Origin: Vicinamibacteria bacterium
Lineage (GTDB): Bacteria; Acidobacteriota; Vicinamibacteria; Vicinamibacterales; CAVVIG01
DNA: 64,000 bases
Direction of reading: 5' to 3'
Assembly: GCA_041485905.1 (NCBI GenBank)
Contig: JBGPKK010000002.1
Span: 4,484-68,483, forward strand
This document shows positions 4,373-64,000 of the stretch, piece by piece. The first letter of the stretch is position 1. Each line of letters opens with the position of its first letter. Made by a program: the position numbers and the translations under genes. Below the pieces are notes generated by a model, which did not search any database, had not been told where the DNA came from, and saw only the letters and a program-made list of their open reading frames with translations.

Positions 4373-4391
4373 GATGAATTTAGCCTCAGCC

Positions 4392-4719: not shown

Positions 4720-4720
4720 G

Positions 4721-38812: not shown

Positions 38813-38828
38813 TTTCGTGAACAAGCTC

Positions 38829-44230: not shown

Positions 44231-44236
44231 TCTCCT

Positions 44237-46420: not shown

Positions 46421-46433
46421 ACAGTTGTGCCTC

Positions 46434-46868
46434 CTACCGCAGGAACCAGCCCCACAGATTTCCATCCGGGGCTTTCTCGCTTGAAATCTGAATATACAGG
46501 CGGCCCTTCTGAAGGCTCTGCACCTGTTCCGGAGTCAAATCGATCGAGCCGGCGAGCGTCCCGGTCATTCCCTTGGAAACCGTGATGTCGGCAACGGGTG
46601 CTCCGCGCACACCCTTCGTCAGACCGGAATGAAGACGGGCGGTGGTTGCCGCTGAGCGCAGCCCTTGGAACGTTCCGCTGATCGTGAGCTTCGTGCCGGC
46701 CAGCACGGCCGATGCAGCACCTGATCCCGCCACCGTGTCACGCATCCCACCATCCATCGGGATGGTGCTCAGCCGGGCTTTGTACCGTTCCTGATTCTGC
46801 GCGGCCGGCTGTGCGAACCAGACACAGACGACCGCGATCACGGCGATAGCAACAGATTGTGTTTTCAT
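46434..46868 (-). CDS. CHRD-domain-like secreted protein
   Basis: 144 aa with a signal peptide. The pattern [22 protein letters not shown]...ARLHSG...GVRGAPV...[18 protein letters not shown] fits the CHRD consensus as I remember it. Confidence 0.55.
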
Positions 46869-46915
46869 GGTTCACTCGCGTATGGGCTGCATTCTAATCC
46901 TATTCCGGCTTGCGG

Positions 46916-47443
46916 TCAGGGTCGTTTTGTCGTGATGCGAATCCGTTGGAGGGCGTCAGCGTCGGCGTCAAGCTCCTGCCCGCCGGGAGGGAACTTGTTG
47001 GCCTGCAGAATGAACGCCACGATATCGCGATAGCGCTGAGGGGACAAACTGTTGGGCCGGTCCGATGGCATGAGCGTTCGAATCCGTACGAACAGCTCGC
47101 CGATGGTCGCGTCGTCCCACTGAAACGAAAAACTCTCCTCCACAAGGCTCGGCGCGGTGCTGTCGCCGCGAAGGTCTTTGGCGTGACACGAGGCGCACAC
47201 GTCCATATACAGAACCCGGCCGCGCCCGGCCTGTTCTTCGGTGTAGACCCCATCCCACGCCGTGCGTGCCGTGCCCGGTTTGGCCTCTTGAGCGCGCGCG
47301 AGGGTGCCGAGGACGAGCCCGCTCGCCACCAAGGCGATCGCGCCGCAGACGAACGCTGATGTGGCGTAAGGCTTCAGCCTTGCGAGCCGGACGCGCTCGC
47401 AACACTGAAGTGTTGCGCCACACCTGGCGTTGAGCATTCTCAT
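46916..47443 (-). CDS. c-type cytochrome (mono-heme), paralogous to the N-domain of PQQ-2
   Basis: 175 aa. CASCH motif and a TLMP Met-ligand region. ATGA overlap with the PQQ-3 stop. TM/signal segment AFVCGAIALVASGLVLG. Confidence 0.8.
   Translation of the reverse strand: MRMLNARCGATLQCCERVRLARLKPYATSAFVCGAIALVASGLVLGTLARAQEAKPGTARTAWDGVYTEEQAGRGRVLYMDVCASCHAKDLRGDSTAPSLVEESFSFQWDDATIGELFVRIRTLMPSDRPNSLSPQRYRDIVAFILQANKFPPGGQELDADADALQRIRITTKRP
47368..47416. repeat. three consecutive hairpins inside the 5' end of the cytochrome c CDS
   Basis: AAGGCT-TC-AGCCTT (47368-81). GCGAGC...GCTCGC (47382-47400). GCAACAC-TGAA-GTGTTGC (47399-47416). Confidence 0.5.
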
Positions 47444-49227: not shown

Positions 49228-49250
49228 GGATTGCTCCTCATCACTTCTTG

Positions 49251-49277
49251 GTCCGGCTAAAGCCGGACACTACGTAC
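49251..49277. repeat. REP-like element: hairpin plus CACTACGTAC tail
   Basis: GTCCGGCT-AA-AGCCGGAC followed by ACTACGTAC. The PQQ-4 stop codon (CTA at 49270-72) lies inside the tail. Matches the copy at 51161-51187 at 24/27 positions in the same orientation. Confidence 0.7.
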
Positions 49278-51192
49278 CAATCGCGAAGGCCAGCAGTCGG
49301 TTGTCGGCGCCCGTGCCGGTTGCGACAACGATGAACTGGCGGCCAGAGCGAGTGCGATACGTCATCGGGTTGGCGGTATTCGGATACGGTATCTTCGTCC
49401 GCCAGACTTCCCTGCCGCTCTTCGTATCGAACGCATAGAAATAGCTGTCGCCGCCGCCGATGAACACGAGGCCACTTCGGGTCACCATCGCGCCGCCGCG
49501 ATTGTTCGGCGACCCCAGGCGATCGGGCAGCGCGACGCCCTCGAGCAGCGGGTTCTTGCGCAGCGCGGCACTCCCTTCGCCCAGTGGAACCCGCCACGCG
49601 ATTTCACCTTTGTTCAAATCAACGGCCGTGAACACGGCGTACGGTGGAGCCGTCAGCGGAAGTCCGCGGACGTTGACCTCTTCGCCGCCGCGCGCAAATC
49701 TATCCGAGTACGCAACCTCCACGAGCGGATCGGATCCGTCGTTCTTCGCGACCCGATTCAGCCCAACCCCACGCGTCGCCCGCACGAAGAGATAGCCGGT
49801 CTCGGGATCGAACGCCGCGCCGCCCCAGTTGCCGCCTCCGCCTTGCCCGGGACGCTGCAGCGTGCCTTCGAGCGAGGGTGGCGTGAACAGCGGACCGAGG
49901 CGGAATTTCTTCATCTGCTCCTGCGCCATCGCTTTGATGGCCGGCGTCAGATCGTTCGCCTCCTCGAGCGAGACACCCTGGTCGACGAACGCCGGGGGCT
50001 TCGTGGGAAACGGCTGCGTGGGATACGGCATCTCGCCCGGCACGTTGCTGTCGGTCGGCACCGGACGTTCCACGATCGGCCAGACCGGCTGCCCCGTCAC
50101 GCGATCGAAGATGTAGGTGAACCCCTGCTTGGTGATTTGCGCCACCGCGTCGATCCGCCGGCCGTTCACCGTGATCGTGACCAGGTTGGGCTGGGCCGGG
50201 TTGTCGTAGTCCCAGAGTCCGTGATGCACCGTCTGGAAATGCCACTTCATCTTGCCGGTCGCCGCGTCGAGACAGACCAGCGACTCGGCGAACAGGTTGG
50301 CGCCCGGCCGTCCGCCGCCGTAGTAATCGCTGCTCGGCGTCGACGTCGGCACGTAGAGGAGCCCTCGAGCCGCGTCAAGCGCCATCGGCGCCCAGGCGTT
50401 GGCGTGGCCGTTGGTTCGCCACGACTCCTTCGCCCACGTCTCGGCACCGGGATCCTTCGGCGACTGGGGAATGACGGAGAAGGTCCACGCGCGCTTGCCC
50501 GTCCGCGCGTCGAAGGCCTGGATGTAACCGACCGGATCGGACACCTGCACGCGGTCGGGCACCTGGCTCCCGACGATGACGAGATCGCGGTACACGACCG
50601 GGGGCGAGCTCTGCGTCGCGTGCCTGATGTCGGAGATTCGGGCCAGGCCGTCGGTCAGCGATACGACGCCGGCGTTTCCGAACGAGCGCACGGGCCGGCC
50701 GTCCTCTGCCTCCAGCGAGAACATGCGATGCCGGCTGTTCAGGAAGACGCGGAGCTTGTTGCCGTCACGCCAGAACGCCGTTCCGCGCAGCTTCCAGCCG
50801 CTCCCGGAGAGAATCTGGCCAAGCTTGTACGCTTCGCCATCGAACCGCCACAGCTCCCTGCCGGTCTCGGCATCGAGCGCCGCGATGCTGTTGTAGGGGG
50901 TCGTGACGTACAGCACGCCATCGATCATCAGCGGCGTGTTCTCGAAAAAGCCCGGCGTGGTTCCGAATTCCTCGAGCCGCGTCTCCCAGTGCTTCCACTC
51001 CCAGGCGACCTGCAGCCGCTGGACGTTCTGCGCGTCGATATCGGTCAGCGCTGAGTACTTGGCGCCGCCCGGATCGCCGCCGTAATACGCCCATTCGACC
51101 TGACGTGAAGGTTGCTGGGCAACCAGGAGGGAACCTGCGGCCAGGACGGCGAGAGCCACGGTCCGGCTCAGGCCGGACACGACGTACTTCAT
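49270..51192 (-). CDS. PQQ-dependent dehydrogenase, glucose/quinate/shikimate family, soluble (PQQ-4)
   Basis: ATG at 51192 (MKYVVSGLSRTVALAVLAAGSLLVAQQ). HHGLWDYDNP motif. 640 aa. The longer track ORF (to 51615) has no signal peptide logic. Confidence 0.9.
   Translation of the reverse strand: MKYVVSGLSRTVALAVLAAGSLLVAQQPSRQVEWAYYGGDPGGAKYSALTDIDAQNVQRLQVAWEWKHWETRLEEFGTTPGFFENTPLMIDGVLYVTTPYNSIAALDAETGRELWRFDGEAYKLGQILSGSGWKLRGTAFWRDGNKLRVFLNSRHRMFSLEAEDGRPVRSFGNAGVVSLTDGLARISDIRHATQSSPPVVYRDLVIVGSQVPDRVQVSDPVGYIQAFDARTGKRAWTFSVIPQSPKDPGAETWAKESWRTNGHANAWAPMALDAARGLLYVPTSTPSSDYYGGGRPGANLFAESLVCLDAATGKMKWHFQTVHHGLWDYDNPAQPNLVTITVNGRRIDAVAQITKQGFTYIFDRVTGQPVWPIVERPVPTDSNVPGEMPYPTQPFPTKPPAFVDQGVSLEEANDLTPAIKAMAQEQMKKFRLGPLFTPPSLEGTLQRPGQGGGGNWGGAAFDPETGYLFVRATRGVGLNRVAKNDGSDPLVEVAYSDRFARGGEEVNVRGLPLTAPPYAVFTAVDLNKGEIAWRVPLGEGSAALRKNPLLEGVALPDRLGSPNNRGGAMVTRSGLVFIGGGDSYFYAFDTKSGREVWRTKIPYPNTANPMTYRTRSGRQFIVVATGTGADNRLLAFAIGT
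51161..51187. repeat. REP-like element copy inside the first codons of PQQ-4
   Basis: GTCCGGC-TCAG-GCCGGAC followed by ACGACGTAC. On the minus strand it encodes YVVSGLSRT, residues 3-11 of PQQ-4. Confidence 0.65.
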
Positions 51193-51272
51193 GATGGGCC
51201 TTTCGACATCCAGGCGTCCCTTGGCGCCGCGCGGTCGATTGTGCGCTGATCCTAGCGCGCCGCCATCGGGAA

Positions 51273-51697
51273 TCAAGGAGAAATCGGGTGCCGCCGAATC
51301 TGGGCCAGCATCTCGAGAACCGCAGATGCGACGGCGTGCGGCCGGCTGTTCCCTATCAAATGGTCGCTCCCGGGAACCATGCGCCACGTGCCTCGCGACG
51401 AGCGACGGGCCAGACGTTGCTGCAAGAGGTTCCAATCCCCGCCCGATCGAGCAGCAGCCGCAAGTCCTCTGTGAGGAGTCCCGCCGTGATCTCGCCGGGC
51501 CCGGGGTCGCTCCACCCCGTGCCCATGCGATCGTAGGAGCACACGCGCGTCCGGGCACCGACCTCCGCGCGGGCCGCTTCAGAGCCGGCCGAGGTCCCAA
51601 ACCCGCTCGACACAAACACGACCGTGGGGTCGCCTTCGCCTATGCACAATAGGCGACATGGTCTCTGCTCTTTTTCTGGCACTGGAGCGCACTGCAA
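51273..51697 (-). pseudogene. alpha/beta-hydrolase remnant (internal deletion plus frameshift)
   Basis: One frame gives an N-terminal hydrolase-like segment GDPTVVFVSSGFG...RVCSYDRMGTGWSDP...LLLDRAGIG. Another frame gives a C-terminal-like segment MVPGSDHLIGNSRPHAVASAVLEML. The nucleophile-elbow region between them is missing. Confidence 0.5.
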
Positions 51698-51744
51698 GAG
51701 TAACCTTCGCGTACGGGTTTGGTACAGCGCCTTTCGAGGTCCAC

Positions 51745-54591
51745 ATGACTATTCACACTCGCGTACGGATGCTGGTGCTCGCGGTGGCCGTCGTGGCCGC
51801 GACCACTCTGGCTGGCGCCCGGCAGCAGGCGGCGGCGAGCTCCGCGCAGACCACGGCGGTCGCCCAGGCGATGCCGGTCGACGCGGAAATCACCCAGGGC
51901 AGACTCCAGAACGGATTGCGCTACTACGTCCGCGCCAACAAGAAGCCCGAAAAGCGGGCCGAGCTCCGGCTCGTCGTCAAGGCCGGGTCGGTGCTCGAAG
52001 ACGACGATCAGCAGGGGCTGGCCCACTTCGTCGAGCACATGGCGTTCAACGGCACCGAGCACTTCCCCAAGAACAACCTCGTGTCGTTCATCGAGTCGCT
52101 CGGCATGCGCTTCGGCGCCGACCTGAACGCCAGCACGAGCTTCGACGAGACGATTTACATGCTCCAGGTCCCCACCGACAAGGCTGAAGCGATGGACAAG
52201 TCGTTTCTGATTCTCGAGGACTGGGCGCACAACATCTCCTTCGATCCCGCGGAGATCGACAAGGAGCGTGGCGTCGTCATGGAGGAATGGCGGCTGCGGC
52301 GAGGCGCGGGGATGCGGACGACCGAGAAGTTACTCCCGGTCCTGCTCAAGGGCTCGCGTTATGCCGATCGGCTCCCGATCGGCAAGACAGAGATCATCCA
52401 GAACGCCAAGGCCGATCGGCTGAAGAAGTTCTATGCGGATTGGTACCGGCCCGACCTCATGGCCGTCGTCGCCGTCGGCGATTTCGACAAGACCGCGATC
52501 GAGAATCTGATCAAGGCTCACTTTGCCGCGATTCCAGCGGCGCCGGCGCCGCGGCCTCGCCCGACCTACGACGTACCCGATCATCCCGGCACCGCGTTCG
52601 CAATTCTGACGGACAAGGAAACGACGGCGGCCACCGTCGAGATCGACTACCTCCTGCCGGCCCGCGATCAGGAATCGGTCGCCGCGTACCGTCAGCGGAT
52701 CGTGGACCGTCTGTTCTCCGGCATGCTCTCCGCCCGGTTTTCGGAGCTTGCGCAGAAGCCCGATGCGCCGTTCCTCGCGGCCGGCGCGGGGCGCGGCCTC
52801 TTCCTGGCCCGCACGAAAGAAGAAGCCTCGCTCAGCGCACGTGTCAAGGAAGATGGCATCGAGCGAGGCCTGGACGGGTTGCTGGCCGAGGCCGAGCGTG
52901 TCTCACGCTTCGGGTTCACGTCCACGGAACTGGACCGACAAAAGGTGTCGGTGCTTCGCGGCTACGAGCGCGCGCTGACCGAGAAGGACAACCGTCTGTC
53001 CGCCGCGCGGGCCAATGAGTACGTCCGAAACTTCACGCAGAACGAGACCCTGCCCAGCCTCGACGACGAATACGCGCTGCACCAGCGCTTCCTGCCGCAG
53101 ATCGCGCTCGACGAGGTCAACAGGATGGCTAGGGAGTGGTTTCCCGATTCGAACCGGCTCGTCATTGTCTCTGCTCCGGAGAAGAACGGTCTCATTCTCC
53201 CGGACGAACCGAAGCTGGCGGCCGTGATGAAGGCCGCCGTCGCCAAGGATCTGAAGCCGTTCGTGGATTCGGTCAGCGCCGTGGCGCTGCTCGCCTCGGC
53301 TCCGCGACCGGGCACGATCGCCAGGACCGCGTCAAAGGACGCCGCCGGCATCACGGAGTGGGAGCTGTCCAACGGCGTGAAGGTGGTACTCAAGCCGACG
53401 ACGTTCAGAGAGGACGAAATCGTCTTTCGAGCCACAAGCCCCGGCGGAACATCGCTCGCGAGCGATAAAGACTTCATTCCTGCCAGCACGGCCACGCAGG
53501 TCGTCACCGCCGGCGGGCTCGGCACGTTCAATCCCATCGATTTGCGGAAGATGCTGACCGGAAAGGTCGCCTCGGCGACCCACTTCATCGGCGAGCTCGA
53601 AGAAGGGCTGAATGGCAACAGCTCCCGCAAGGATCTGGAGACGATGTTCCAGCTGATTTACCTCAGGTTCACGGAGCCGCGGCGGGACGAGACGGCGTTC
53701 GAGGCGCAAACCGCACAGGTGAAATCTCTGCTGGCGAACCAGGGCGCGAGCCCCGACTACGCGCTCGCGCAGACCCTCTCGAACACGATGTCGCAGAATC
53801 ACCTCCGGAGGCAGCTCCCGTCGGCAGCGACCGTCGACCAGTGGAATCTCGACAAGTCGCTGGCCTTCTACAAAGACCGTTTCGCCGACGCGAGCGACTT
53901 CACATTTGTCTTCGTCGGCAGCCTGGATTTGCCGACGATGAAGCCGCTCGTCGAGCGGTACCTCGCGACGCTGCCGTCACTCCATCGGCAGGAGACCTGG
54001 AAGGACGTCGGGGTCCGGACGCCAGCCGGGGTCATCGTGAAGACGGTCGCCAAAGGCATCGAGCCCAAGAGCCAGGCCGCGATCGTGTTCAGTGGGCCGT
54101 TCGAGTACGACGAAACGCACCGCGTGGCGATCCGGGCCATGGCGCATATGCTCCAGGGGAAGCTGCTGCAAACAATCCGCGAGGATCTGGGCGGCACCTA
54201 CAGCATCACTGCGACCCAGAATTTCCAGAAGAATCCCCGTCCGGAGTACTCCATCACCGTCCGGTTCGGGTCCGACCCGAAGCGCACCGACGATCTCATC
54301 ACTCGAGTGATCGAGGAGATCGAACAGTTCAAGGCGAACGGCCCGACCGAGCAGCAGGTGATCGACGAGAAGGAAGCGCTTCTGCGCGAATTCGAGACGA
54401 GCAGCAAGCAGAACAACTACTTGCTGAATCAGATCGTGCTCAAGTATCAGTACCGCGAAGATGTTGCCACCGTGTGGGAGGCTCCGGAGTATTACAAGAA
54501 GCTGGACGCGGCGATGATTCGGCAGGCGGCGAAGACGTACCTGAATATGAACAATCGAGTACTGGTCACGCTGGTCCCTGAGAAGAATTAA
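51745..54591 (+). CDS. M16-family (pitrilysin/insulinase) zinc metallopeptidase, two-unit fusion, secreted
   Basis: ATG at 51745 (MTIHTRVRMLVLAVAVVAATTLAGA). HFVEHMAFNG (HxxEH) motif. 948 aa, consistent with fused active and inactive M16 halves. Confidence 0.9.
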   Translation: MTIHTRVRMLVLAVAVVAATTLAGARQQAAASSAQTTAVAQAMPVDAEITQGRLQNGLRYYVRANKKPEKRAELRLVVKAGSVLEDDDQQGLAHFVEHMAFNGTEHFPKNNLVSFIESLGMRFGADLNASTSFDETIYMLQVPTDKAEAMDKSFLILEDWAHNISFDPAEIDKERGVVMEEWRLRRGAGMRTTEKLLPVLLKGSRYADRLPIGKTEIIQNAKADRLKKFYADWYRPDLMAVVAVGDFDKTAIENLIKAHFAAIPAAPAPRPRPTYDVPDHPGTAFAILTDKETTAATVEIDYLLPARDQESVAAYRQRIVDRLFSGMLSARFSELAQKPDAPFLAAGAGRGLFLARTKEEASLSARVKEDGIERGLDGLLAEAERVSRFGFTSTELDRQKVSVLRGYERALTEKDNRLSAARANEYVRNFTQNETLPSLDDEYALHQRFLPQIALDEVNRMAREWFPDSNRLVIVSAPEKNGLILPDEPKLAAVMKAAVAKDLKPFVDSVSAVALLASAPRPGTIARTASKDAAGITEWELSNGVKVVLKPTTFREDEIVFRATSPGGTSLASDKDFIPASTATQVVTAGGLGTFNPIDLRKMLTGKVASATHFIGELEEGLNGNSSRKDLETMFQLIYLRFTEPRRDETAFEAQTAQVKSLLANQGASPDYALAQTLSNTMSQNHLRRQLPSAATVDQWNLDKSLAFYKDRFADASDFTFVFVGSLDLPTMKPLVERYLATLPSLHRQETWKDVGVRTPAGVIVKTVAKGIEPKSQAAIVFSGPFEYDETHRVAIRAMAHMLQGKLLQTIREDLGGTYSITATQNFQKNPRPEYSITVRFGSDPKRTDDLITRVIEEIEQFKANGPTEQQVIDEKEALLREFETSSKQNNYLLNQIVLKYQYREDVATVWEAPEYYKKLDAAMIRQAAKTYLNMNNRVLVTLVPEKN

Positions 54592-54607
54592 GGTATTGGG
54601 AGGGTTT

Positions 54608-54763
54608 ATGCTTCACAAGACCGGCAAGATGACTGGCTTTCACATACTCGCGACGGACGGCGAAGCCGGCCATGTGGACGATTTCCTGGTCGACGAGAGC
54701 TGGGCGATCCGTGGCACCGCCGACATCGAACTGATTGAAACCCTGCCTCCGGTGATCATGTAG
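54608..54763 (+). CDS. PRC-barrel-like fragment (possibly a gene remnant)
   Basis: The 51-aa ORF MLHKTGKMTGFHILATDGEAGHVDDFLVDESWAIRGTADIELIETLPPVIM* is preceded by GGGAGGG. The segment GxxIxATDGExGHVxDFLVDxxxWAIR matches the PRC-barrel N-terminal half, and the rest is absent. Confidence 0.4.
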   Translation: MLHKTGKMTGFHILATDGEAGHVDDFLVDESWAIRGTADIELIETLPPVIM

Positions 54764-54780
54764 TTGCTCGGTCTGTCACG

Positions 54781-55329
54781 ATGAATACTTTCTTCCGGAC
54801 GGCTCTGCTTGGAAGCCTGGCGCTCGGCATGGCCGGGCTCGCTGCTCAGTCGCGTCCATCGCGCGCCCCGGCTCCGTCGGCGCGTCAGATCGAGCGCGGC
54901 CGCTACCTCGCGACCATCGGTGCGTGCAACGACTGCCATTCGCCGAAAACCGACGCGGCGCAGACGCCCGATCCGAAGCGGCCGTTTTCTGGCCGGCCGC
55001 AGACGACGATGGCACCCTCGCAGAACCCGAAAGAGATTCATGCGTCGCTGGATTTGACGGCGTGGTCGGGGCCCTGGGGCGTCAGCTACGGCGCGAATCT
55101 GACGCCAGACGCTGAGACCGGACTGAAGAAGCGGTATACCGAGGCGTCGTTCATCAGGACGCTGCGCACGGGCAAGAAGCCCGAAGGCGAGGACCTGCTG
55201 CCGCCGATGCCGTGGGCGCTCTACAAGATGATGTCCGACGAGGATCTCAAGGCGCTCTATGCGTATCTGCAGACGATCCCGGCGATTAGGAACAACGTGA
55301 AGAACGCGGCGGCGCCAGGGAAGAAGTAG
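54781..55329 (+). CDS. c-type cytochrome (secreted)
   Basis: 182 aa with a signal peptide. RGRYLATIGACNDCHSP heme motif and a PPMPW Met-ligand region. Confidence 0.8.
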   Translation: MNTFFRTALLGSLALGMAGLAAQSRPSRAPAPSARQIERGRYLATIGACNDCHSPKTDAAQTPDPKRPFSGRPQTTMAPSQNPKEIHASLDLTAWSGPWGVSYGANLTPDAETGLKKRYTEASFIRTLRTGKKPEGEDLLPPMPWALYKMMSDEDLKALYAYLQTIPAIRNNVKNAAAPGKK

Positions 55330-55332
55330 CGG

Positions 55333-55800
55333 CTAGAGGTACATGATCAGCCGCCCGCCGGCGGCCACGCTCATCCAGAGCACGATCGACACCAGCGCCA
55401 CGAGCCTGCCCCAGACAGGGCCCACCCGGCCCTCGTCGGCTGCCGTCACCTTGCGGCGAACCGTGAACGTAAAGATGAGCGCCGCAAAGAGGACATACAT
55501 CTTGAACCAGAAGATCTTGTTGGCGTACTGCTGGGTGGCCGTGGCCATCAGCGCCGGGATGCCGGTCAGGGTCAGTCCGATGAGGCCGCCAATCAGCCAC
55601 GGCCTGGCGCTTCGCGCCACCTGCTTCACGGACTGAGTCGTCAGTCCGGCCCCCATCAGACGCAAATCGACCATCAGGAGCGCGCCCATGAAGGTGCACA
55701 TCGAGACCAGGTGCACCAGGTTCACGCCGGGACCGAGATAGATGGATGACTTGTAGACCGCGAGGCTTTCCATCCCCTTGAAGAACGGCTGTAGAGACAC
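55333..55800 (-). CDS. uncharacterised 4-TM membrane protein, H-x14-DLR[LM][LM]G family (paralogue P3)
   Basis: H-x14-DLRLMG, KM and LW-x6-GRL motifs. GTG at 55800 sits 9 nt after GGAG (the track uses TTG 55809, which abuts the SD). 3-12 nt after the P4 stop. Confidence 0.7.
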   Translation of the reverse strand: MSLQPFFKGMESLAVYKSSIYLGPGVNLVHLVSMCTFMGALLMVDLRLMGAGLTTQSVKQVARSARPWLIGGLIGLTLTGIPALMATATQQYANKIFWFKMYVLFAALIFTFTVRRKVTAADEGRVGPVWGRLVALVSIVLWMSVAAGGRLIMYL

Positions 55801-55812
55801 CAGGTTCAACTC

Positions 55813-56343
55813 CTATTTCACTTGCTCGACGATGGTCCACCAGTCGTAGGCGACCAGTCGCCCGAAACACAGCACGGTGATCCACAAGACAATGGACAGG
55901 ACACCGGCCAGTTTCGCTGCAAACGGCGGCGAGGCATTGGTGTCCCACGCCGCCACTGATCGGTACGTGGTGAAATGAAAGACCAGCAGATTCAGGACCG
56001 CCAGGGGCATCGCCACTAACATCTTGACCCAATAGAAACCCTTACCCCAGTACAGCACCGGCTGTGCATAAAACAGGACGAAGCCGCTGATCGCCATCAC
56101 GATGGCGCCGAGCAGCTGCCACGGGAACAGGCGTTTCTGAATCTGGGAGATGGACGTCTGCGGGTGCGCGACGCCCAGCAGCCGCAGATCCATCATCAGG
56201 ACCAGACCGAGGAACAGACACATGCTGAGGACATGCAGCGTCAGGAAGGTCCCGAAGAAGTTTGGCGCGTCCTCACGCAGATACAGGCTGCCTGGCAGAG
56301 TGCCGACCCACTCGAAAAACCCTTTGTACGGTGGGGGCCACAT
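55813..56343 (-). CDS. uncharacterised 4-TM membrane protein, same family (paralogue P4)
   Basis: 176 aa with H-x14-DLRLLG, KM and LW-x6-GRL. The AAKL motif before TM4 is shared with P1. Starts 7 nt after the upstream cytochrome stop. Confidence 0.7.
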   Translation of the reverse strand: MWPPPYKGFFEWVGTLPGSLYLREDAPNFFGTFLTLHVLSMCLFLGLVLMMDLRLLGVAHPQTSISQIQKRLFPWQLLGAIVMAISGFVLFYAQPVLYWGKGFYWVKMLVAMPLAVLNLLVFHFTTYRSVAAWDTNASPPFAAKLAGVLSIVLWITVLCFGRLVAYDWWTIVEQVK

Positions 56344-56350
56344 CAGCGCG

Positions 56351-56965
56351 TCAAACTCCCGGAATGCAGCGTTTTTCCGGACCCACCTTCGCGCCGCCGA
56401 TGCGGCTGTCCGGCCGGTAAACGTCGTGGCAGTTCGAACACGTCTCGGTGAGCCGATCGCTGAGCTTGTTCACCGCGTCCTGGTTCTTGCTCTTGGCGGC
56501 GTTGTATTCCGCAAGCCCTGTTGCGCGGAGCGCCTGCGCGAACTTCACGAAATCCGGCTGGTTGAGCGGCACGGGCTTGCCATTCGAACACATGCGTCCG
56601 GGAATCAGGATGAGGTTGGCGAATTCCGCGATCGCGAGGCTGGCATTCTCGACGCCCTCCCATCCCTGATAGGTTCCGAGGTACGGACCGTTGGAGTCGG
56701 GCTTCTTCTTGGCGGGATCGGTATCCTGCACGTCGAAAATGATGTTCGAGTTCGGAAACGGGATGGCGCGCATGATCTGGGCAAGCGACCCGTGCGCCCG
56801 GGCGGTGGAACCACCCCGGGCTGGCGCGGCCGCCCCTCGGGCTGGTTGCGCGGCAGCGGCACCCCGGGCAGGCGCCTGAGCGGCCGCGACATTTTCGCCA
56901 GCGGCCAGAAAGGCGGCGACCCCGGCAGAGACAAGTAACGTGACAAGTACGCGACGGATTGTCAT
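56351..56965 (-). CDS. class-II (cytochrome c'-like) c-type cytochrome, secreted
   Basis: ATG at 56965 with GAGG upstream. Signal peptide, Ala/Gly/Arg-rich linker, and a single CSNCH heme motif close to the C-terminus, as in four-helix-bundle class II cytochromes. Confidence 0.6.
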   Translation of the reverse strand: MTIRRVLVTLLVSAGVAAFLAAGENVAAAQAPARGAAAAQPARGAAAPARGGSTARAHGSLAQIMRAIPFPNSNIIFDVQDTDPAKKKPDSNGPYLGTYQGWEGVENASLAIAEFANLILIPGRMCSNGKPVPLNQPDFVKFAQALRATGLAEYNAAKSKNQDAVNKLSDRLTETCSNCHDVYRPDSRIGGAKVGPEKRCIPGV

Positions 56966-57107
56966 CTTCGCACCTCTATCTAAGACCTTGGCGAGCGGAA
57001 CATGCATCAAGCGTTCTTATGAAACGCGAAGGCCATACTACTCAGGAGAGGGAGAGCGCCGCAAGCCACCACGGTAGGGCACGGCTTTCAAGGGGTGCCG
57101 ATGCGGG

Positions 57108-58814
57108 CTACCGGAGCGCGTAGACGAACAGTGCGCTGCCCGCGGCGATGGCGACGTGCTGGCGTCCGCCGACCGAGAACGACATCGGCGCTGCCGAGAC
57201 CGCGCCGCCCACGCTGGTCCTCCAGAGCAGCGCGCCGGTCCGCGCATCGAGCGCGAAGAAATATCCTTCGCGGCCGCCGGAAAAGAGCAGATCCGAAGCC
57301 GTGCTCAAGATGCCGCTGTCGGTGACGTCAGTCATCTTGAACTCCCACTTCTTCTCGCCCGTCTTCGGATCGAACGCCTGCACGGCGCCGTAGCCGTCTT
57401 CCGGCAGCCTCCGGTTGACCAGAGGCCCCGGCTGCAGGCTGCGCACTGGCATCACCGGCAGCGCTCCCGTGAAGCGCTGGCCTTCCGTGTACTCGACCGG
57501 GCGTCTGATGTAGGTCGAGTACGTATCCATCCAACTCGGGATATAGAAAAGTCCGGTCCTCGGGCTGAACGACGGTGAATACCAGTTCGTGCCGCCCTGG
57601 TTACCTGGAAAGATGATCGTGCCCTCGGCGGTTGGGCTGACCACGTTCTGCGGCCTCCCCTTGTCATCGACGCCGCTGGTCCAGGTCACCTTCACGAACG
57701 GTTTGCCGAGCAGGAACTGGCCATTCGTCCGATCGAGCACGTACCAGAGCCCGTTGCGGTTGGCCCACAGCATCGCCTTGCGCGCTCTGCCCTGCCATTG
57801 GATATCGGCGAGCACCGGCACCTGGACCGAGTCGTAGTCGAACTCGTCGTGCGGCGTGAACTGGAAGTGCCATTTCAACTGACCGGTGTCGGCATCGAGG
57901 GCGACGACCGATTCGCTGTACAAGTTGTCGCCGCCGCGCCGGTCGCCGTTCCAGTCCGGTCCCGGATTGCCGATCCCCCAGTACGTCAGGTTGAGATCGG
58001 GATCGTAGGAGCCAGTCACCCACACCGACGCTCCTCCGCTCTGCCATGAATTGCCCGCCCATGTGTCATGACCACGCTCGCCCGGTCCGGGAATGGTGTT
58101 GAAACGCCAGGCTTCCTTGCCGGTGCGGGCGTCAATCGCGGCGAGAAAGCCGCGGATGCCGTACTCGCCGCCGACGGAACCGACGATCACCTTATCCTTG
58201 ACGACCAGCGGCGCCACTGTGAAGCCGTAGCCCGCTTCCGGCCGCGCGCCGCCGACGGCGACGTTCCATACGAGCCCGCCGGTCTTCGCATCGATTGCCA
58301 GCAGGTGGCCGTCGATCGTGCCCATGAAGAGCGTGGTGCCGAGGATCGCGAGCCCGCGGTTGACGCGGCCGCAGCACGGCCGCGCCAGCGTCGACGGTGC
58401 GTACGGATACGTCCAGAACACTCGTCCCGTCGCCGCGTCGAGCGCCACCAGATCGTTCGGCGCCTGGACGGTGTACATGATGCCGTCCACCACCAGCGGC
58501 GTCGCCTCGAACTTCTCCAGTGACTGCGCCTGGAACACCCAGCGCAGCTCGAGGTTCTTGACGTTGGCCGGCGTGATCTCCGCGAGTTGGCTGTAGCGCT
58601 GGCTCATCACGCCGCCCGAATAGGTCAGCCAGTTCTGCGGCTCGGCGGCAGCACGAAGGATGCGATCGAAGGACACTTGTGCATGCAAGCCGGCTACTAC
58701 GGATCCAAGAATCGCCAGATACAAGCCGACACGAAAGCACGAAGCCACGAAGGCTCTCTTGAAGGATGACGTTTCGTGTTTTCGTGTTGTCGCGGCAAAA
58801 CCCTGTTCGATCAT
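57108..58814 (-). CDS. XoxF-like PQQ-dependent methanol/ethanol-family dehydrogenase (PQQ-5)
   Basis: 568 aa. Vicinal disulfide motif RPCCGRVN. Active-site TPHDEFDYDSV (D-Y-D at 57831-57839). ATGA overlap with the upstream cytochrome gene. Confidence 0.9.
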   Translation of the reverse strand: MIEQGFAATTRKHETSSFKRAFVASCFRVGLYLAILGSVVAGLHAQVSFDRILRAAAEPQNWLTYSGGVMSQRYSQLAEITPANVKNLELRWVFQAQSLEKFEATPLVVDGIMYTVQAPNDLVALDAATGRVFWTYPYAPSTLARPCCGRVNRGLAILGTTLFMGTIDGHLLAIDAKTGGLVWNVAVGGARPEAGYGFTVAPLVVKDKVIVGSVGGEYGIRGFLAAIDARTGKEAWRFNTIPGPGERGHDTWAGNSWQSGGASVWVTGSYDPDLNLTYWGIGNPGPDWNGDRRGGDNLYSESVVALDADTGQLKWHFQFTPHDEFDYDSVQVPVLADIQWQGRARKAMLWANRNGLWYVLDRTNGQFLLGKPFVKVTWTSGVDDKGRPQNVVSPTAEGTIIFPGNQGGTNWYSPSFSPRTGLFYIPSWMDTYSTYIRRPVEYTEGQRFTGALPVMPVRSLQPGPLVNRRLPEDGYGAVQAFDPKTGEKKWEFKMTDVTDSGILSTASDLLFSGGREGYFFALDARTGALLWRTSVGGAVSAAPMSFSVGGRQHVAIAAGSALFVYALR

Positions 58815-59566
58815 GGGCGACCTCGCAAAGAAGCCAGGTAGCTGACGACATCCGCCAGCTCCTGGGCGTTCAACTTGTCTCGATACGACGGCATCGGTGA
58901 ACTCTTGAGCACAGCGTACTCCCGCAGGGTCGCCTTCTCGAGCAACATCAGCCGCTCGCTCGAGTCGATCAACTGCAGGGTGAATGTGTCCTGATTGAGC
59001 AGTCGACCGGTGATCGTGTTGCCGTCCCGGGTCACGGCGCGGACGCTGCGATTCTCCGGGCGAATGTCGGCGTCGGGATCAAGGAGCGAGCGTTGCAGCT
59101 CCGCGCCCGGACGAAATGCGCCGATCTCTGTGAGCGCGGGCCCGGTGCGCCCGCCGATCCCGCTCACGCTGTGGCAGGTGAGGCACTGGCCCTTGCCGTC
59201 GAACACCGCCTTGCCGCGGCCGGCGTCACCGCCCGCCGGCACGCCGCCACTCGCCAGCGACCGCACGTACGCCACGATCGTCGCCGCCTGCCCGTCCGAA
59301 AAACTGCTCGGCGGCATCGGTGTATTCGGAATGCCCCGCATGATGACCCGGACGAGGTCATCGTCCGACGTCGAGCGCCGGAACTGCCCCTTGCTGAAGT
59401 TCACGCCGCCGACCCAGTCGCCTTCCGGGCCGTGGCAACCCGTGCAGCTCGACGTAAACAGTCGACCGCCCGCTTCGATTTCCACGGGAACGTAGCGCTG
59501 CTGGGCGACGAGCGCCCCACCCGCGCAGCACGCCACCAACGCAAAGACGCCTGTGATCGTTCGCAT
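58811..59566 (-). CDS. di-heme c-type cytochrome (second domain of the Pirellula/Verrucomicrobium heme-binding type)
   Basis: ATG at 59566 (MRTITGVFALVACCAGG). CTGCHGPEG and CLTCHSVSG motifs. The tail ...GPALTEIG...DGNTITGRL...KSSPMPSYRDKLNAQELADVVSYL resembles the TIGR02603-type domain. Confidence 0.8.
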   Translation of the reverse strand: MRTITGVFALVACCAGGALVAQQRYVPVEIEAGGRLFTSSCTGCHGPEGDWVGGVNFSKGQFRRSTSDDDLVRVIMRGIPNTPMPPSSFSDGQAATIVAYVRSLASGGVPAGGDAGRGKAVFDGKGQCLTCHSVSGIGGRTGPALTEIGAFRPGAELQRSLLDPDADIRPENRSVRAVTRDGNTITGRLLNQDTFTLQLIDSSERLMLLEKATLREYAVLKSSPMPSYRDKLNAQELADVVSYLASLRGRP

Positions 59567-59613
59567 GAAGAACTTCCCCACTTCCCTTGACTTCACTCTT
59601 GCCCTCTGCCCTT

Positions 59614-61164
59614 TCACTTGCAGGTATAGCTCTCGGGGTCCTCAGTGTTCCCGCTGCCTTTGTACATCGCCACCATCGGGTACTGGCAGACCAGGCGCTT
59701 GCCGACTTCCATGCTGTTCTTGTAGTGCGACACGATGAGCGTGTCCGGGGCCTTGCCGGTCTTCTTCCATTCCTCAATCGTGGCAAGGGCGTCGAAGTTC
59801 ATGTTCTCGGCGCCGTTGGTGCCCGGGCCGTGTCCCATCGCGGGCACGACGAAGAATCGCATCGATTTCTTCACCGCGCTCGCGCCGGTCCTGGCGACGA
59901 CGTTCTTGTAGTAGTTGATGGAAACCTTCGGCGGCACCGCGGTGTCGGCCCAGCCGTCCACGAGGAGCAGCTTGCCGCCGCGCGCGAAGAATTTCTTGAG
60001 ATCCGGGTCGACGGCATTGACCGGTTGGATGTCCGGCTTGTCCGCCAGCGCCACGTCCTTGTCGAAATCGATCGGCCGTGTCTTGTAATCCCAGTTCGGA
60101 TCCTTGAACACGAAGTACTTGAAGAACTCCACCGGAATGCCGAGCGGCGCGTCGCCGCCGGCCAGCTGCGCCCAGCCGAGCTCGCTACCCGGATACATCG
60201 GCGAGTACAGCTCCTGCCTGGTTCGGGGGTTGGTCGGTCCCGCGTAGATCTTGCGCGCCGCCTCGACCTGCGGTCCGGTGAGACAGCTCGGGTCCCCGGT
60301 TCCCTTGCACTGAATCACGCCGGGATCGAACTTGCAGTGCTCCACGTCACCGATGATCCCGTCCTTGAGGCCGTCCAACGCGTCGCACGCGTTGAGCGCC
60401 GCCTCGTGGAGGATTGGATATTTGTCCGGCGGGATGTAGCTCGCAGCATCCTTGTGCGTCGCCTGCCAGTACCACATCTGGCCGAACGTGTGACGCGTCA
60501 GATACGACGACATGCCCGTCACGGCGACGACGTCGTAGTCCTCGGGGTACCGCTGCGCGGAACTGAGCGCCGCGATCGTGCCGCCGCCGCCTTCCGCGAT
60601 AACTGAATACGTCAGGACTTTGTCGTAATACGCCTTAATGAGCGCTTTCGCAGCGACGGTCATCTCGTGGGCGGCGCGATAGCCGAAGTCCATGATCTTT
60701 TCGGGATGATCGATCGCGTACCGCGAGTCGCCTTCGTGGCCGGTGTTGTTACCCGCCGTCGCGTATCCAAGCCGGACGCCGTTGGCCAGCGCGCCCGCGC
60801 CCACGGCGGCGCCTCCGCCCAGACCTCCGTTACCGGTGCCGCGAAGCTTGCCGTTCCAGCTCGCAGCTACGGGCATCCACAGTTCGATCTTGATGTCGGA
60901 GTCGCCCGAGGGCTTCAACGTCGCCTGCACGCGGCAGAAAGCCGGAAGGTCGTTGAACTGCTGGCCCCTGCCACCGGCTCCCCCGCGCGCGGGCGCCGGA
61001 GGTGGCGTAAACGCTCCGGCCGCGACCGGCTGCGCCAGCGTCATCGTCGTATTCGGCAACGAGAGCATCGTCAGATTCTGGCAGGTGGTCGCAGCCGCGG
61101 ACGGCGGCGCCGTGACGGCCAACGCCGTGAAAGCGACCGTGGCGACGACAGACTTACGGAACAT
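59614..61164 (-). CDS. tannase/feruloyl-esterase-family protein lacking the catalytic Ser and both motif cysteines (paralogue T1)
   Basis: ATG at 61164 (MFRKSVVATVAF...TTCQNLTMLSLPNTT). AEGGGG (60580-60597) aligns to the GCSTGG of the neighbour, and GHG aligns to its GHC. Confidence 0.85.
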   Translation of the reverse strand: MFRKSVVATVAFTALAVTAPPSAAATTCQNLTMLSLPNTTMTLAQPVAAGAFTPPPAPARGGAGGRGQQFNDLPAFCRVQATLKPSGDSDIKIELWMPVAASWNGKLRGTGNGGLGGGAAVGAGALANGVRLGYATAGNNTGHEGDSRYAIDHPEKIMDFGYRAAHEMTVAAKALIKAYYDKVLTYSVIAEGGGGTIAALSSAQRYPEDYDVVAVTGMSSYLTRHTFGQMWYWQATHKDAASYIPPDKYPILHEAALNACDALDGLKDGIIGDVEHCKFDPGVIQCKGTGDPSCLTGPQVEAARKIYAGPTNPRTRQELYSPMYPGSELGWAQLAGGDAPLGIPVEFFKYFVFKDPNWDYKTRPIDFDKDVALADKPDIQPVNAVDPDLKKFFARGGKLLLVDGWADTAVPPKVSINYYKNVVARTGASAVKKSMRFFVVPAMGHGPGTNGAENMNFDALATIEEWKKTGKAPDTLIVSHYKNSMEVGKRLVCQYPMVAMYKGSGNTEDPESYTCK

Positions 61165-61165
61165 C

Positions 61166-62755
61166 CTATCGCTCCTTACACACAAAGTTGGCGGCCTCGT
61201 TGATACTTCCGCTTCCTTTGTACGTCGCCACCTGCGGGTACGGGCAGAGCGGACGCGTGCGGTCGACTGCGCCGTCTTTCAGACGCGACGCGCTGATCTG
61301 CGCAGGCGCCTTTCCGTTTTCCACCCATTGGTCCAGCGCGCTCAGCATGTCAAACGTACTGGTCCCGTCGCCGCCGCCGCAGTGGCCCATGCCGGGCACC
61401 ATGAACAGACGGACAGAATCGCGCACGTCCTTCACCGTCGTCTTCGCCACCACGTTCTTGTAGTAGTCCACGATGTAGCCGGGAGGAATGCCGGGATCGC
61501 TCCATCCCGCGTACATGAGCAGCTTCCCGTGCCGCAGCAGCTTCGTCAGATCGGGATCGATCGCCGTCAGCTGGCCAACGACCTTGTCGGCTTTCGCGAT
61601 ATCACTGTCATAATTGAGCGTCAGTGGATCCCATTTCGGGTCCTTGAACACGACATACCGGTAGACATCAAGGGCGTAACCGACCGGTTGCGCGCCGGCC
61701 GATGCGGCCCAGCCCATCTCGCTTCCAGGGAACAGCGGCGAAAAGATCTGTTCGCCGGTGCGCGGGTTCCTGGCGCCGGCGTAAATCTTCCGCGCCGCTT
61801 CGACCTGCGAGGCGGTCAGGCAGCCCGGTCCGTCTGCATCCTTGCACTGCACGACTTTCGGATCGAACTTGCAGCGGGTCGGATCTTCGAGCACACCGTC
61901 CTTCACGCCGTCCAGAGCGTCGCAGGCGGCGACCGCCGCGTCGTGCAGCACGGTCAGCTTGTCCGGCGTGAGGTAGCCCGCCGCGTCTTTGTGGGTCGCC
62001 TGCCAGATCCAGATCTGCCCGGCAGACTGGCGCGATGCATAAATCGCCGGCGCGCCGGCGACGATGCCGTCGAAATCGTCGGGGAAGCGCTGTGCGGCGG
62101 TCAGCGCCTGCCGGCCGCCCGTCGAGCAGCCATTGAAGTAGGACGCCTTCGGACCGTTGCCGTAGAACGCCGCCAGGATCGCTTTGCTCTTCACCGCCGT
62201 CTCGTGAACCGCCCGGTCGGCGAAATCGGTCAGCCGCTCGGGATGATCGAGCATGAAACTGCCGCTGCCGCCCTCATGGCCCGTGTCGGTCGTGGCCGCC
62301 GCATACCCGCTGCGAAGCGCCGCGGCGAGACCGGCGGGAGCGATCGCTCCGGCAAATCCGCCGTTGCCGGGCAGGACGAACTTGCCGTTCCATCCCGAGG
62401 CGGGCATCCAGAGCTCGACCTTGATGTCGGAGTCGCTGCTCGGCTTCAGCGTCGCGCTGACGCGGCAGAAGGCCGGCAGATCGGCGAACTGCGCGCCGCG
62501 GCCGCCGGCTCTTCCCGGCGGTTGGCCGGCGCGGCCAGCCTCGGCCGGCGGTGCTGCGCCGCGCGCCCCACCGGCTCTCGCGGGCGGCGCGGGCGGAACA
62601 TACGCGCCGGCAGCCACCAACTGCGCGGATGTGATGGTCGCGTTCGGCAACGAGAGCATCGTCAGCTTCTCGCAGGTGGTCGCGGCGACGGCGGATTGAG
62701 CTCCGCCAACAAAAGACGCTGCCGCAAGCGTTGATAACCAGACGTTTCGGAACAT
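61166..62755 (-). CDS. tannase/feruloyl-esterase-family alpha/beta hydrolase (paralogue T2, motifs intact)
   Basis: 529 aa with a signal peptide. TTCEKLTMLSLPNAT. Nucleophile motif GCSTGG (62114-62131). PGMGHCGGG near the C-terminus. Confidence 0.85.
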   Translation of the reverse strand: MFRNVWLSTLAAASFVGGAQSAVAATTCEKLTMLSLPNATITSAQLVAAGAYVPPAPPARAGGARGAAPPAEAGRAGQPPGRAGGRGAQFADLPAFCRVSATLKPSSDSDIKVELWMPASGWNGKFVLPGNGGFAGAIAPAGLAAALRSGYAAATTDTGHEGGSGSFMLDHPERLTDFADRAVHETAVKSKAILAAFYGNGPKASYFNGCSTGGRQALTAAQRFPDDFDGIVAGAPAIYASRQSAGQIWIWQATHKDAAGYLTPDKLTVLHDAAVAACDALDGVKDGVLEDPTRCKFDPKVVQCKDADGPGCLTASQVEAARKIYAGARNPRTGEQIFSPLFPGSEMGWAASAGAQPVGYALDVYRYVVFKDPKWDPLTLNYDSDIAKADKVVGQLTAIDPDLTKLLRHGKLLMYAGWSDPGIPPGYIVDYYKNVVAKTTVKDVRDSVRLFMVPGMGHCGGGDGTSTFDMLSALDQWVENGKAPAQISASRLKDGAVDRTRPLCPYPQVATYKGSGSINEAANFVCKER

Positions 62756-62914: not shown

Positions 62915-64000
62915 ATGAAGCCGAATCGATGGCTGCGTATAGTTTCAGGCGCGGTGCTGGCCGCTGCCGGCGCGTTCGCGGCCCTTCACGCGCAGGCTGT
63001 TACAACATCGAAAGATGCCGACTGGCCGATGTACAACCGCGATCTGGCCGGCACGCGCTACTCCCCGTTGAAGCAGATCAACACCGGGAACGTGGCGAAC
63101 CTCGCTCGCGCGTGGTTGTACAAGTTGGGACGCGATCAGACTGCCGGCTCGCTGTCGGGCGGCTCGGAATTTACGCCGATTGTGGTGAACGGGGTTATGT
63201 ACGTTGCGGCATCCGATCACATCGCCGCGCTCGAACCGGAAACCGGCCGCGAGGTCTGGCGGTATCAGGTCACAAACGGCGTCCCCTCCCGTCGCGGCGT
63301 CGCGCATTGGCCGGGAGATGCAAGCCATCCGCCGCACATCGTGTTCACGTCAGAGCGCCGGCTGATCGCGCTGACGGCGCGCGCGGGCGAACCGGTCGCC
63401 GGCTTTGGACAGGACGGCGAAGTGAACATGGGAGCGCCGTACAACTCGGCGCCGACTGTCTATAAGAACCTGCTGATCGTCGGCACGAACGGCTCGCCCG
63501 GGGGCGTGCGGGCGTTCGATGCGCGGACCGGCGCCAGGGTGTGGGAATTCAACTCCGTCGCGCAACCTGGCGATCCCGCCAACAAGACATGGGAGGCCGA
63601 CAGCTGGAAGAATCGCTCCGGCACCTACAGTTGGGCGTTCTCCCAGACCCTCGATGCGGAGCGTGGCCTTCTCTACGTCGCGGTCGAGGCGCCGGGACCA
63701 AACGATTACTGGGGTGGCGATCGACACGGCGACGATCTGTACGGCAACTCCCTGGTCGCCCTCGATGCCGACACCGGAAAGCTGAAGTGGTACTTCCAGG
63801 CGGTCCATCACGATCTCTGGGACTACGATGTGCCGTCGCCGCCGGCGCTGCTCGACGTCACCGTGAACGGGACGCGCACGCCGATCCTCGCGCTCGCCGC
63901 CAAGACCGGCTACATGTACATTCTCGATCGCGTCACCGGCAAGCCGGTCTTCGGCATCGAGGAGCGAGGGGTGCCTCCGAGCGGCGCGCCCGGCGAGAAG
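62915..64000 (+). CDS. PQQ-dependent dehydrogenase, glucose/quinate/shikimate family (PQQ-6), 3' end outside window
   Basis: ATG at 62915 after GGGAGG. Signal peptide MKPNRWLRIVSGAVLAAAGAFAALHA. DWPMYNRDLAGTRYSPL and HHDLWDYDVPS motifs. The frame stays open to the end of the window, so it is absent from the ORF track. Confidence 0.85.
   Translation, partial: MKPNRWLRIVSGAVLAAAGAFAALHAQAVTTSKDADWPMYNRDLAGTRYSPLKQINTGNVANLARAWLYKLGRDQTAGSLSGGSEFTPIVVNGVMYVAASDHIAALEPETGREVWRYQVTNGVPSRRGVAHWPGDASHPPHIVFTSERRLIALTARAGEPVAGFGQDGEVNMGAPYNSAPTVYKNLLIVGTNGSPGGVRAFDARTGARVWEFNSVAQPGDPANKTWEADSWKNRSGTYSWAFSQTLDAERGLLYVAVEAPGPNDYWGGDRHGDDLYGNSLVALDADTGKLKWYFQAVHHDLWDYDVPSPPALLDVTVNGTRTPILALAAKTGYMYILDRVTGKPVFGIEERGVPPSGAPGEK

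Follow-up and report, generated by a model that had tools for sequence, protein, structure and literature searches.

Paired DUF6644 membrane proteins and a class-II cytochrome c form a conserved gene module, separable from a neighbouring PQQ dehydrogenase pair, in a Vicinamibacteria bacterium

When genes for c-type cytochromes, a quinoprotein dehydrogenase and small membrane proteins follow one another on the same strand, do they encode one electron transport chain or several systems that happen to be neighbours? The question is raised by a 64 000-nucleotide (nt) stretch of DNA from a Vicinamibacteria bacterium (contig JBGPKK010000002.1 of assembly GCA_041485905.1; hereafter the window). On its minus strand, between positions 55333 and 59617, five open reading frames (ORFs) have strong coding signatures (G+C content at third codon positions, GC3, of 0.74–0.88; genes were called with a GC3-based gene caller). 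They encode a di-haem class-I cytochrome c, a soluble pyrroloquinoline quinone (PQQ) alcohol dehydrogenase (PQQ-5), a class-II cytochrome c (CP) and two proteins with four transmembrane (TM) helices, P4 and P3, which belong to the family DUF6644 (table 1). The original prediction, made from the sequence alone, had combined all five into a single new route from periplasm to membrane. We find that the region is best explained as two units, the di-haem cytochrome c with PQQ-5, and CP with P4 and P3.

Evidence for this division comes from the conservation of gene order. We fetched 67 loci with a P4-like gene, mostly from Acidobacteriota, with some from Longimicrobiales and one from an Acidimicrobiia member; 66 were usable. 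The sample was drawn with patterns from alignment A2 and consists of members of the P4-like subfamily. A P3-like (B-type) gene directly follows the P4-like (A-type) gene in 62 of the 66 loci, and natural fusions of two DUF6644 domains exist, which bears out the tight coupling proposed for the pair. Directly upstream of the pair, 39 loci have a CP homologue with a CxxCH motif, so that the association of the membrane proteins with a cytochrome recurs elsewhere, in two phyla and in one fusion protein. A PQQ dehydrogenase, on the other hand, lies within 6 kb of the pair in only eight loci. The full window order, tannase–tannase–di-haem–PQQ–CP–D–D (D denoting a DUF6644 gene), is retained only in the relative L070, whose P3 is 86% identical, while relatives at 78–81% identity have CP–D–D behind an IFT or ABM-domain gene instead. 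Since the order is confined to close relatives and is already replaced at 78–81% identity, the linkage of CP–D–D to PQQ genes is recent, local and lineage-specific, and the proposed connection of the pair to the PQQ dehydrogenase and its di-haem cytochrome does not survive the comparison.

Two other families accompany the pair more faithfully than the dehydrogenase does. Homologues of IFT, a periplasmic protein family, occur no more than 6 kb from the DUF6644 pair in 38 of the 66 loci, and clustering of the called genes placed IFT in 37 loci and DUF6152 in 30. The gene orders seen were CP–D–D, CP–DUF6152–D–D, IFT–DUF6152–(CP)–D–D and D–D–IFT–DUF6152. The earlier list of partners was thus right about the class-II cytochrome and missed DUF6152 and IFT, the most widely conserved of them. 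For other phyla we searched plasmids and chromids with tblastn. In Azospirillum, Cupriavidus, Sinorhizobium meliloti pSymA and Ensifer one DUF6644 gene comes after DUF6152; S. mexicanum has DUF6152–IFT–D–D; and in Novosphingobium humi DUF6152 and IFT are divergent from D–D–CP, with a CP of 144 amino acids (aa) whose haem motif is CVACH. The deepest conserved pair is therefore DUF6152 with DUF6644, which the cytochrome often joins, and in more than one phylum. The window encodes IFT and no DUF6152.

Table 1. Features of the window discussed in the text (positions refer to the 64 000-nt window).
Feature	Position	Strand	Remarks
Di-haem class-I cytochrome c	58811-59617	minus	start GTG 59617 or ATG 59566; CTGCH and CLTCH
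PQQ-5, soluble PQQ alcohol dehydrogenase (methanol/ethanol family)	57108-58814	minus	TIGR03075; lanthanide-type Asp (D-Y-D)
Spacer, 142 nt, between dehydrogenase unit and cytochrome-DUF6644 unit	56966-57107	none	read from sequence
CP, periplasmic class-II four-helix-bundle cytochrome c	56351-56965	minus	ORF extends to 57010
P4, DUF6644 subunit A, 4 TM	55813-56343	minus	PF20349, 36.1 bits
P3, DUF6644 subunit B, 4 TM	55333-55809	minus	PF20349, 77.9 bits; likely start GTG 55800
Third DUF6644 paralogue, singleton	36879-37373	plus	phmmer and hidden Markov model (HMM) matches
Fourth DUF6644 paralogue	37377-37892	minus	convergent with third paralogue, divergent from IFT gene
IFT family protein, periplasmic	37877-38812	plus	real start probably near 37982; no family model

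Spacing within the region follows the same division. P4 begins 7 nt after CP, and P3 begins either 3 nt (at TTG) or 12 nt (at GTG 55800) after P4; the GTG is preceded by AGGAG and gives a length that fits the homologues of 154–155 aa. For CP, the ATG at 56965 has a GAGGTG Shine–Dalgarno sequence ahead of it and agrees with the 204-aa homologue P0240, and with this start exactly 142 nt separate CP from the stop codon of PQQ-5. All of these gaps had been predicted, and all are present. Scans of the 142-nt spacer revealed no promoter-like or terminator-like site and no Rfam match; the equivalent spacer in L070 is about 70 nt long.

Natural fusions, sought among the best 150 DUF6644 family representatives, join the parts of the second unit in several ways. 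P0360, P0361 and P0363 are tandem D–D fusions, the metagenomic protein P0423 is a D–CP fusion (E-value 2.7e-14 for the CP domain) that follows a separate D gene, and P0447 joins DUF6152 to D, as confirmed by precomputed Pfam matches. The fusions argue that the two DUF6644 subunits and both periplasmic partners would belong to one complex. Because a secreted domain can precede DUF6644 at its N-terminus and a c-type cytochrome can follow it at its C-terminus, both termini lie on the periplasmic side, and the distribution of lysine and arginine agrees. It follows that H33, K103, W145 and R153 (P3 numbering) are in the periplasmic half of the bundle, with D48 and R50 at the cytoplasmic end of TM1.

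DUF6644 is catalogued in Pfam as PF20349 (gathering threshold 27 bits, 155-position model), and all 141 homologues match it. The singleton paralogues in the window score 21.6 bits or nothing against PF20349, whereas the family HMMs find them at 1e-36 or better. At 50% identity the family comprises 7743 clusters with an E-value ≤ 1e-3, or 3973 with an E-value ≤ 1e-10; it is common in soil Acidobacteriota and is found on rhizobial, Cupriavidus and sphingomonad replicons. Seven residues (H33, D48, R50, G83, K103, W145 and R153) are essentially invariant in the 141 homologues and in 115 diverse representatives. Four of these, the His, Asp, Arg and Lys singled out from the sequence at the outset (H33, D48, R50 and K103), are invariant throughout the 141 homologues and occur in 110–114 of the 115 representatives, which were selected at 50% identity. 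Among the same representatives the Met residues of TM1 are not conserved, and Met and Cys are not conserved in general. An AlphaFold2 (AF2) model of P3 (predicted local distance difference test, pLDDT, 78) has four long helices, with an amphipathic one at the N-terminus. The 4-TM family matches no known non-redox function, profile searches of PDB sequences with DUF6644, DUF6152 and IFT gave nothing meaningful, and NCBIfam has no model for CP, DUF6644, DUF6152 or IFT. Literature searches for DUF6644, DUF6152, PF20349 and PF19649 returned no matching paper; DUF2214 and PF09980 appear in three papers, in passing only. The claim of a new module hence stands in so far as the unit is uncharacterised and conserved, but its membrane proteins belong to a family already on record.

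CP is a class-II cytochrome c, although it scores below the Pfam threshold for that class (22.1 bits against a gathering score of 26.5 for PF01322, Cytochrom_C_2, covering the C-terminal half only). Many of its homologues at 45–67% identity carry a precomputed PF01322 match, and a profile search of the PDB yielded class-II cytochromes only. The AF2 model is a four-helix bundle (pLDDT 83.5), with cytochrome c', cytochrome b562 and a small Kuenenia cytochrome c as the top Foldseek matches (TM-scores 0.55–0.71, target-normalised). The protein has a signal peptide ending in A-Q-A, followed by an Ala/Pro-rich linker. Its haem motif CSNCH is at residues 176–180 of 204; the prediction had placed it near the C-terminus, and it was located 40 residues from that end. 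The CxxCH motif and a Met in helix 1 are invariant in CP homologues (76 of 76 and 50 of 50). In six-coordinate class-II cytochromes such as c556 and b562, the Met ligand occupies this position of helix 1. The haem of CP is thus probably ligated by Met and His, and the conserved Met suggests a low-spin electron carrier. We rejected CP as a five-coordinate, gas-binding cytochrome c', since the invariant Met speaks against a missing sixth ligand; the earlier description as cytochrome c'-like was apt for the class-II four-helix bundle, while the Met makes the protein resemble c556 and b562. It shares with these the bundle, the C-terminal CxxCH and the helix-1 Met, but it is longer (about 150 mature residues), and differs by the N-terminal linker, a β-hairpin insert, two extra invariant Cys and the low Pfam score.

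The two other partners are periplasmic. In DUF6152 (L028:8144-8575, L071:2475-2858, L072:5543-5926 and 30 further loci) two features are invariant, the A-x-A|HH at the mature N-terminus and an NPH motif. The His-His at the N-terminus suggests a metal site that may resemble a histidine brace; an N-terminal His exposed by signal peptide removal is a marker of metal-binding proteins (PMC12537917). Members of the IFT family are about 300–330 aa long (examples are the window gene, L009:6340-7335 and L071:2855-3763), share two invariant Cys (in C..xG.P and E..C.E) and the motif W.G.S.G.WEG(D/N)TLVV, and have no match in Pfam, NCBIfam or the PDB. IFT genes often stand in several copies beside DUF6152 and DUF6644.

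What, then, might the DUF6644 pair do? Weak Pfam cross-matches among the 141 members were to DUF2214 (62 members), UPF0093/HemJ (26; PF03653, best E-value 0.005), DUF4149 (20) and CopD (4). In an hhalign comparison with three plasmid-encoded HemJ sequences the match was weak (E-value 0.0012, probability 19%), and H33, R50 and K103 fell on the conserved His (KAFHII), Arg (LPRL) and Lys (HAKV) of HemJ. DUF6644 would accordingly be a remote relative of HemJ at most, and not a member of its family. HemJ is a membrane-bound homodimeric b-type haemoprotein whose own electron acceptor is unknown (PMC13564367, a 2026 review). The likeness to HemJ/PgdH2 extends to a small helical membrane protein that dimerises, a TM1 His, an Arg about 16–17 residues later and a Lys where a later helix starts; HemJ differs, however, in being a homodimer encoded beside haem-synthesis genes, whereas DUF6644 forms an A/B pair encoded with a cytochrome c, DUF6152 and IFT. 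Two other identities were tried and rejected. As CopD (PF05425), the family has only the four weak matches, and hhalign with Escherichia coli YebZ gave a probability of 0.3%. As a di-haem cytochrome of the b561 or MsrQ type, it is short of His, each subunit having a single invariant one; in addition, DUF6644 members match 40 families, and the 25 of these that were listed include neither Ni_hydr_CYTB nor Ferric_reduct. Both types nevertheless offer parallels of arrangement. MsrQ, a small haem-b membrane protein, hands quinol electrons to its periplasmic partner MsrP, a flow of the kind we propose here, and cytochrome b561 (CybB family) is paired with cytochrome c' in cycP operons, which likewise set the gene for a class-II cytochrome c next to that for a membrane protein, there a cytochrome. 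MsrQ and b561 have two His pairs and two haems per polypeptide and are not homologous to DUF6644.

Taken with the gene order and the fusions, these comparisons lead us to favour, tentatively, a HemJ-like heterodimer that would hold haem b near the periplasm and exchange electrons with a Met/His cytochrome c. Gene content, the conserved pairing, the fusions, topology and fold class are shown by the data; we infer haem b, its connection to quinone and which way electrons flow. P4 and P3 would together make up a heterodimer of 8 TM helices whose N- and C-termini are periplasmic, and CP would dock on its periplasmic face. The invariant TM1 His, in the periplasmic half of the helix, may bind haem b, as the remote homology to HemJ suggests, with the invariant Lys and Arg holding the haem propionates. 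A single buried His, with Arg and Lys close to the aqueous face, is what usually marks a pocket for haem b and not a Cu(I) pathway. Electrons could then pass from quinol to haem b, to the cytochrome c and on to a periplasmic client, much as in MsrQ/MsrP, the client probably being DUF6152 and/or IFT where these are present; PQQ-5 may feed or share the cytochrome pool from outside the module. A redox role is suggested by the operon for Alternative Complex III (ACIII) that lies downstream in nine loci, and by the class-I cytochromes and cupredoxin-like genes found in some. The opposite direction, from cytochrome c to quinone, had been put forward originally and appears less likely than the outward one, because soluble PQQ alcohol dehydrogenases normally pass their electrons via cytochrome c to an oxidase, and because electrons would have to move uphill from a c-type cytochrome to reach menaquinone, which is energetically unfavourable.

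Several observations weigh against this scheme or against the division into units on which it builds. For no DUF6644 protein did we find evidence of haem b or of a quinone. The alignment to HemJ is marginal, at the hhalign probability given above, and Foldseek of the DUF6644 model against the PDB found no solved relative and nothing better than an E-value of 1.4. With one invariant His per subunit, a two-haem wire across the membrane is excluded. The four proteobacterial replicons with DUF6152 and a single DUF6644 gene (Azospirillum, Cupriavidus, S. meliloti and Ensifer) have no cytochrome with them, so the core function of DUF6644 may not require a c-type cytochrome. The N-terminal His-His of DUF6152 recalls CopC or YcnI with CopD and may point to metal handling instead. 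Finally, the spacer scans neither show nor exclude co-transcription of CP with PQQ-5.

The metal-handling alternative is the strongest of those considered, though we regard it as unlikely. It would have DUF6152 bind Cu, Ni or Fe through its His-His, the 8-TM DUF6644 pair move the ion across the inner membrane and the cytochrome change the oxidation state of the metal. This would account for the minimal DUF6152–DUF6644 pair of the proteobacterial replicons, for its fused form P0447 and for the invariant A-x-A|HH and NPH motifs; PepSY_TM genes within the module in seven loci and a siderophore ABC transporter nearby in Azospirillum fit it as well. There is also precedent in YcnI and CopC, which act with the CopD-type YcnJ (PMC12362106). 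Like YobA–YebZ, these systems, all among the weak Pfam cross-matches, set a periplasmic protein with an N-terminal His metal site beside, or fused to, a helical membrane protein, and the eight TM helices of CopD equal those of two DUF6644 subunits. Yet DUF6644 lacks both detectable profile similarity to YebZ and the conserved Met/His clusters of the copper systems: its invariant membrane residues are His, Asp, Arg, Lys, Trp and Arg, with Met and Cys variable, unlike Cu(I) pathways. DUF6152 is neither CopC nor DUF1775 by Pfam, and DUF6644 frequently has a c-type cytochrome as partner; in the window module, as in many acidobacterial copies, the cytochrome is present and DUF6152 is absent from the vicinity. 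The adjacency of ACIII suggests respiration, although copper delivery to oxidases would fit it too.

We consider improbable the original route itself, a five-gene operon in which electrons would run from PQQ-5 through the di-haem cytochrome c and the class-II cytochrome to the DUF6644 pair and the quinone pool. The common strand, the spacer without a terminator-like site, the order kept in L070 and the eight loci with a PQQ dehydrogenase near the pair speak for it. Against these stand the other 58 loci, where the linkage is absent, the unrelated IFT and ABM genes in the 78–81%-identical relatives and the bioenergetic objections raised above, namely the established delivery of electrons by soluble PQQ alcohol dehydrogenases to an oxidase and the uphill step to menaquinone. 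Furthermore, with six PQQ dehydrogenase genes in the window, any gene comes cheaply by such a neighbour, which makes the adjacency weak evidence.

Just as little credence attaches to a cofactor-less DUF6644 pair that merely anchors CP, DUF6152 and IFT at the membrane. Fusions do indicate physical association only, no cofactor has been shown and the partners differ from locus to locus; but the near-invariance of six polar or aromatic membrane residues across thousands of clusters would be unexpected in a plain anchor, and three of the invariant residues are in register with the haem protein HemJ. A HemJ-like role in tetrapyrrole oxidation or haem handling (for example in porphyrinogen oxidation or in cytochrome c maturation, where CP would accept the electrons) is highly improbable: the remote similarity to HemJ, and the gap in knowledge about that enzyme's acceptor, would favour it, but no haem-biosynthesis genes were seen among the recurrent neighbours of DUF6644 loci, unlike hemJ beside hemE, several paralogous copies occur per genome (four in the window), and the partners are periplasmic.

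The first unit is more conventional. The di-haem cytochrome gene overlaps PQQ-5 by ATGA (ccATGAtc, 58811-58814), as the prediction had noted. The cytochrome matches Pfam Cytochrom_C over two stretches (71.9 bits) and exceeds the cut-off of TIGR02603 (78.2 against 68.15 bits), falling far short of the cL/MoxG model (22.7 bits, cut-off 147.8). PQQ-5 scores 537.9 bits against TIGR03075 (cut-off 480) and also matches, below cut-off, TIGR04528 ('acido-empty-quinoprotein group A'). Both motifs ascribed to it, the Cys-Cys ring (RPCCG) and TPHDEFDYDS, can be read in the sequence. The DEFDYD stretch aligns with DGWDFD of PedH, where Ca-dependent alcohol dehydrogenases have Thr (DFT or DYT); in XoxF and PedH this additional Asp binds the lanthanide. 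PQQ-5 has the same Cys-Cys ring, the same Glu and Asn as ligands of the metal and the same Asp (D-Y-D) as these two enzymes, and is accordingly a PQQ alcohol dehydrogenase of the lanthanide type. Its identity with XoxF is not demonstrable, since among PDB entries the type-II quinohaemoprotein ADH-IIB (348 bits) and PedH (334) score higher than XoxF (320 and 296) and no xoxG or xoxJ is nearby. The XoxF-like label was therefore right about the Cys-Cys ring and the Asp, with ADH-IIB and PedH the closer relatives; in place of XoxG/XoxJ, PQQ-5 has the di-haem cytochrome with its TIGR02603 domain. As had been said, bc1, oxidase, XoxG and XoxJ genes are all absent from the window genes scanned against Pfam, which were all those from 36 kb on, bar one small uncalled repeat ORF, and most of the large ones upstream; for the rest of the 1–36 kb part, N-terminal sequences only were read, and it looks like housekeeping. 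The translationally coupled di-haem cytochrome c is the probable electron acceptor of PQQ-5, and together they would form an ordinary periplasmic pair.

Directly upstream of the di-haem cytochrome gene are two tandem tannase/feruloyl-esterase paralogues (59614-62755), which overlap it by 4 nt if it starts at GTG 59617; they and the pair are kept together in L070. The tannase neighbours hint that the substrates of PQQ-5 may be compounds released when aromatic esters are hydrolysed, and not methanol. The five further PQQ dehydrogenase paralogues of the window are at 42446-51615 and 62915-64000, among them one with an N-terminal cytochrome c domain (44237-46465) and one of 781 aa that matches the full glucose/alcohol dehydrogenase propeller (49270-51615). 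Between a kinase gene and a PQQ dehydrogenase gene, ORF 41915-42445 (plus strand), which was not called as a gene by the GC3-based caller, contains a 21-nt tandem repeat (5.7 copies, 42059-42178) that encodes DQRFDAV heptads.

In L070 four DUF6644 genes are contiguous, as CP–D–D–D followed by a convergent D and then by Sua5–HflX–TPR. The orthologue of the fourth window paralogue immediately follows P3, in the same orientation, and that of the third adjoins the P3 gene cluster. In the window these genes are parted by about 17.4 kb (37893-55332), a block with genes for IFT, four PQQ dehydrogenases, two cytochromes c, an M16 peptidase and a Ser/Thr kinase that has PD40 repeats; it is either an insertion in the window or a deletion in L070. 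A monohaem cytochrome c gene convergent with the module (54781-55329) was considered as part of it and rejected: no homologue is near any other locus, and it too is in the block that L070 lacks.

Other genes recur around the module. In nine acidobacterial loci (L001, L002, L004, L015, L016, L019, L024, L025 and L029) the ACIII operon directly downstream consists of genes for an ActA-like multihaem cytochrome, ActB, an NrfD-like protein and ActD, often with a class-I cytochrome c and a 74-aa membrane protein between CP–D–D and ACIII. A PepSY_TM-like protein of about 520 aa is encoded inside the module in L050, L051, L059, L061 and L063 (at about 4050-5600 in each), all from genomes of the Vicinamibacterales type, and the PepSY_TM family, to which the siderophore reductase FoxB belongs, occurs in seven loci. 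A cupredoxin-like protein (L017:5098-5919, L048:10515-11339) has the motif C-x2-H-x2-M, a CarboxypepD_reg-like C-terminus and a weak match to amicyanin; in L017 and L064 its gene adjoins the DUF6644 pair, from which it is only a few genes away in L045 and L048.

The window thus warns against inferring a respiratory chain from adjacency in a genome with many PQQ dehydrogenases. For the DUF6644 family, gene order and fusions define a module of four to five components, its topology and the residues to mutate. Whether DUF6644 pairs with CP, DUF6152 and IFT amount to an unrecognised, widespread envelope system, with a HemJ-type single-haem-b heterodimer as a new point of electron entry or exit for a periplasmic metalloprotein, we regard as rather doubtful as yet; if so, an understanding of the system would reveal how HemJ passes on its electrons. 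Should the pair bind haem b, it would represent a new family of small membrane cytochromes that link the quinone pool to the periplasm, and a handle on HemJ; should it move metal ions, it would be a new uptake system of the CopCD kind that includes a cytochrome of its own.

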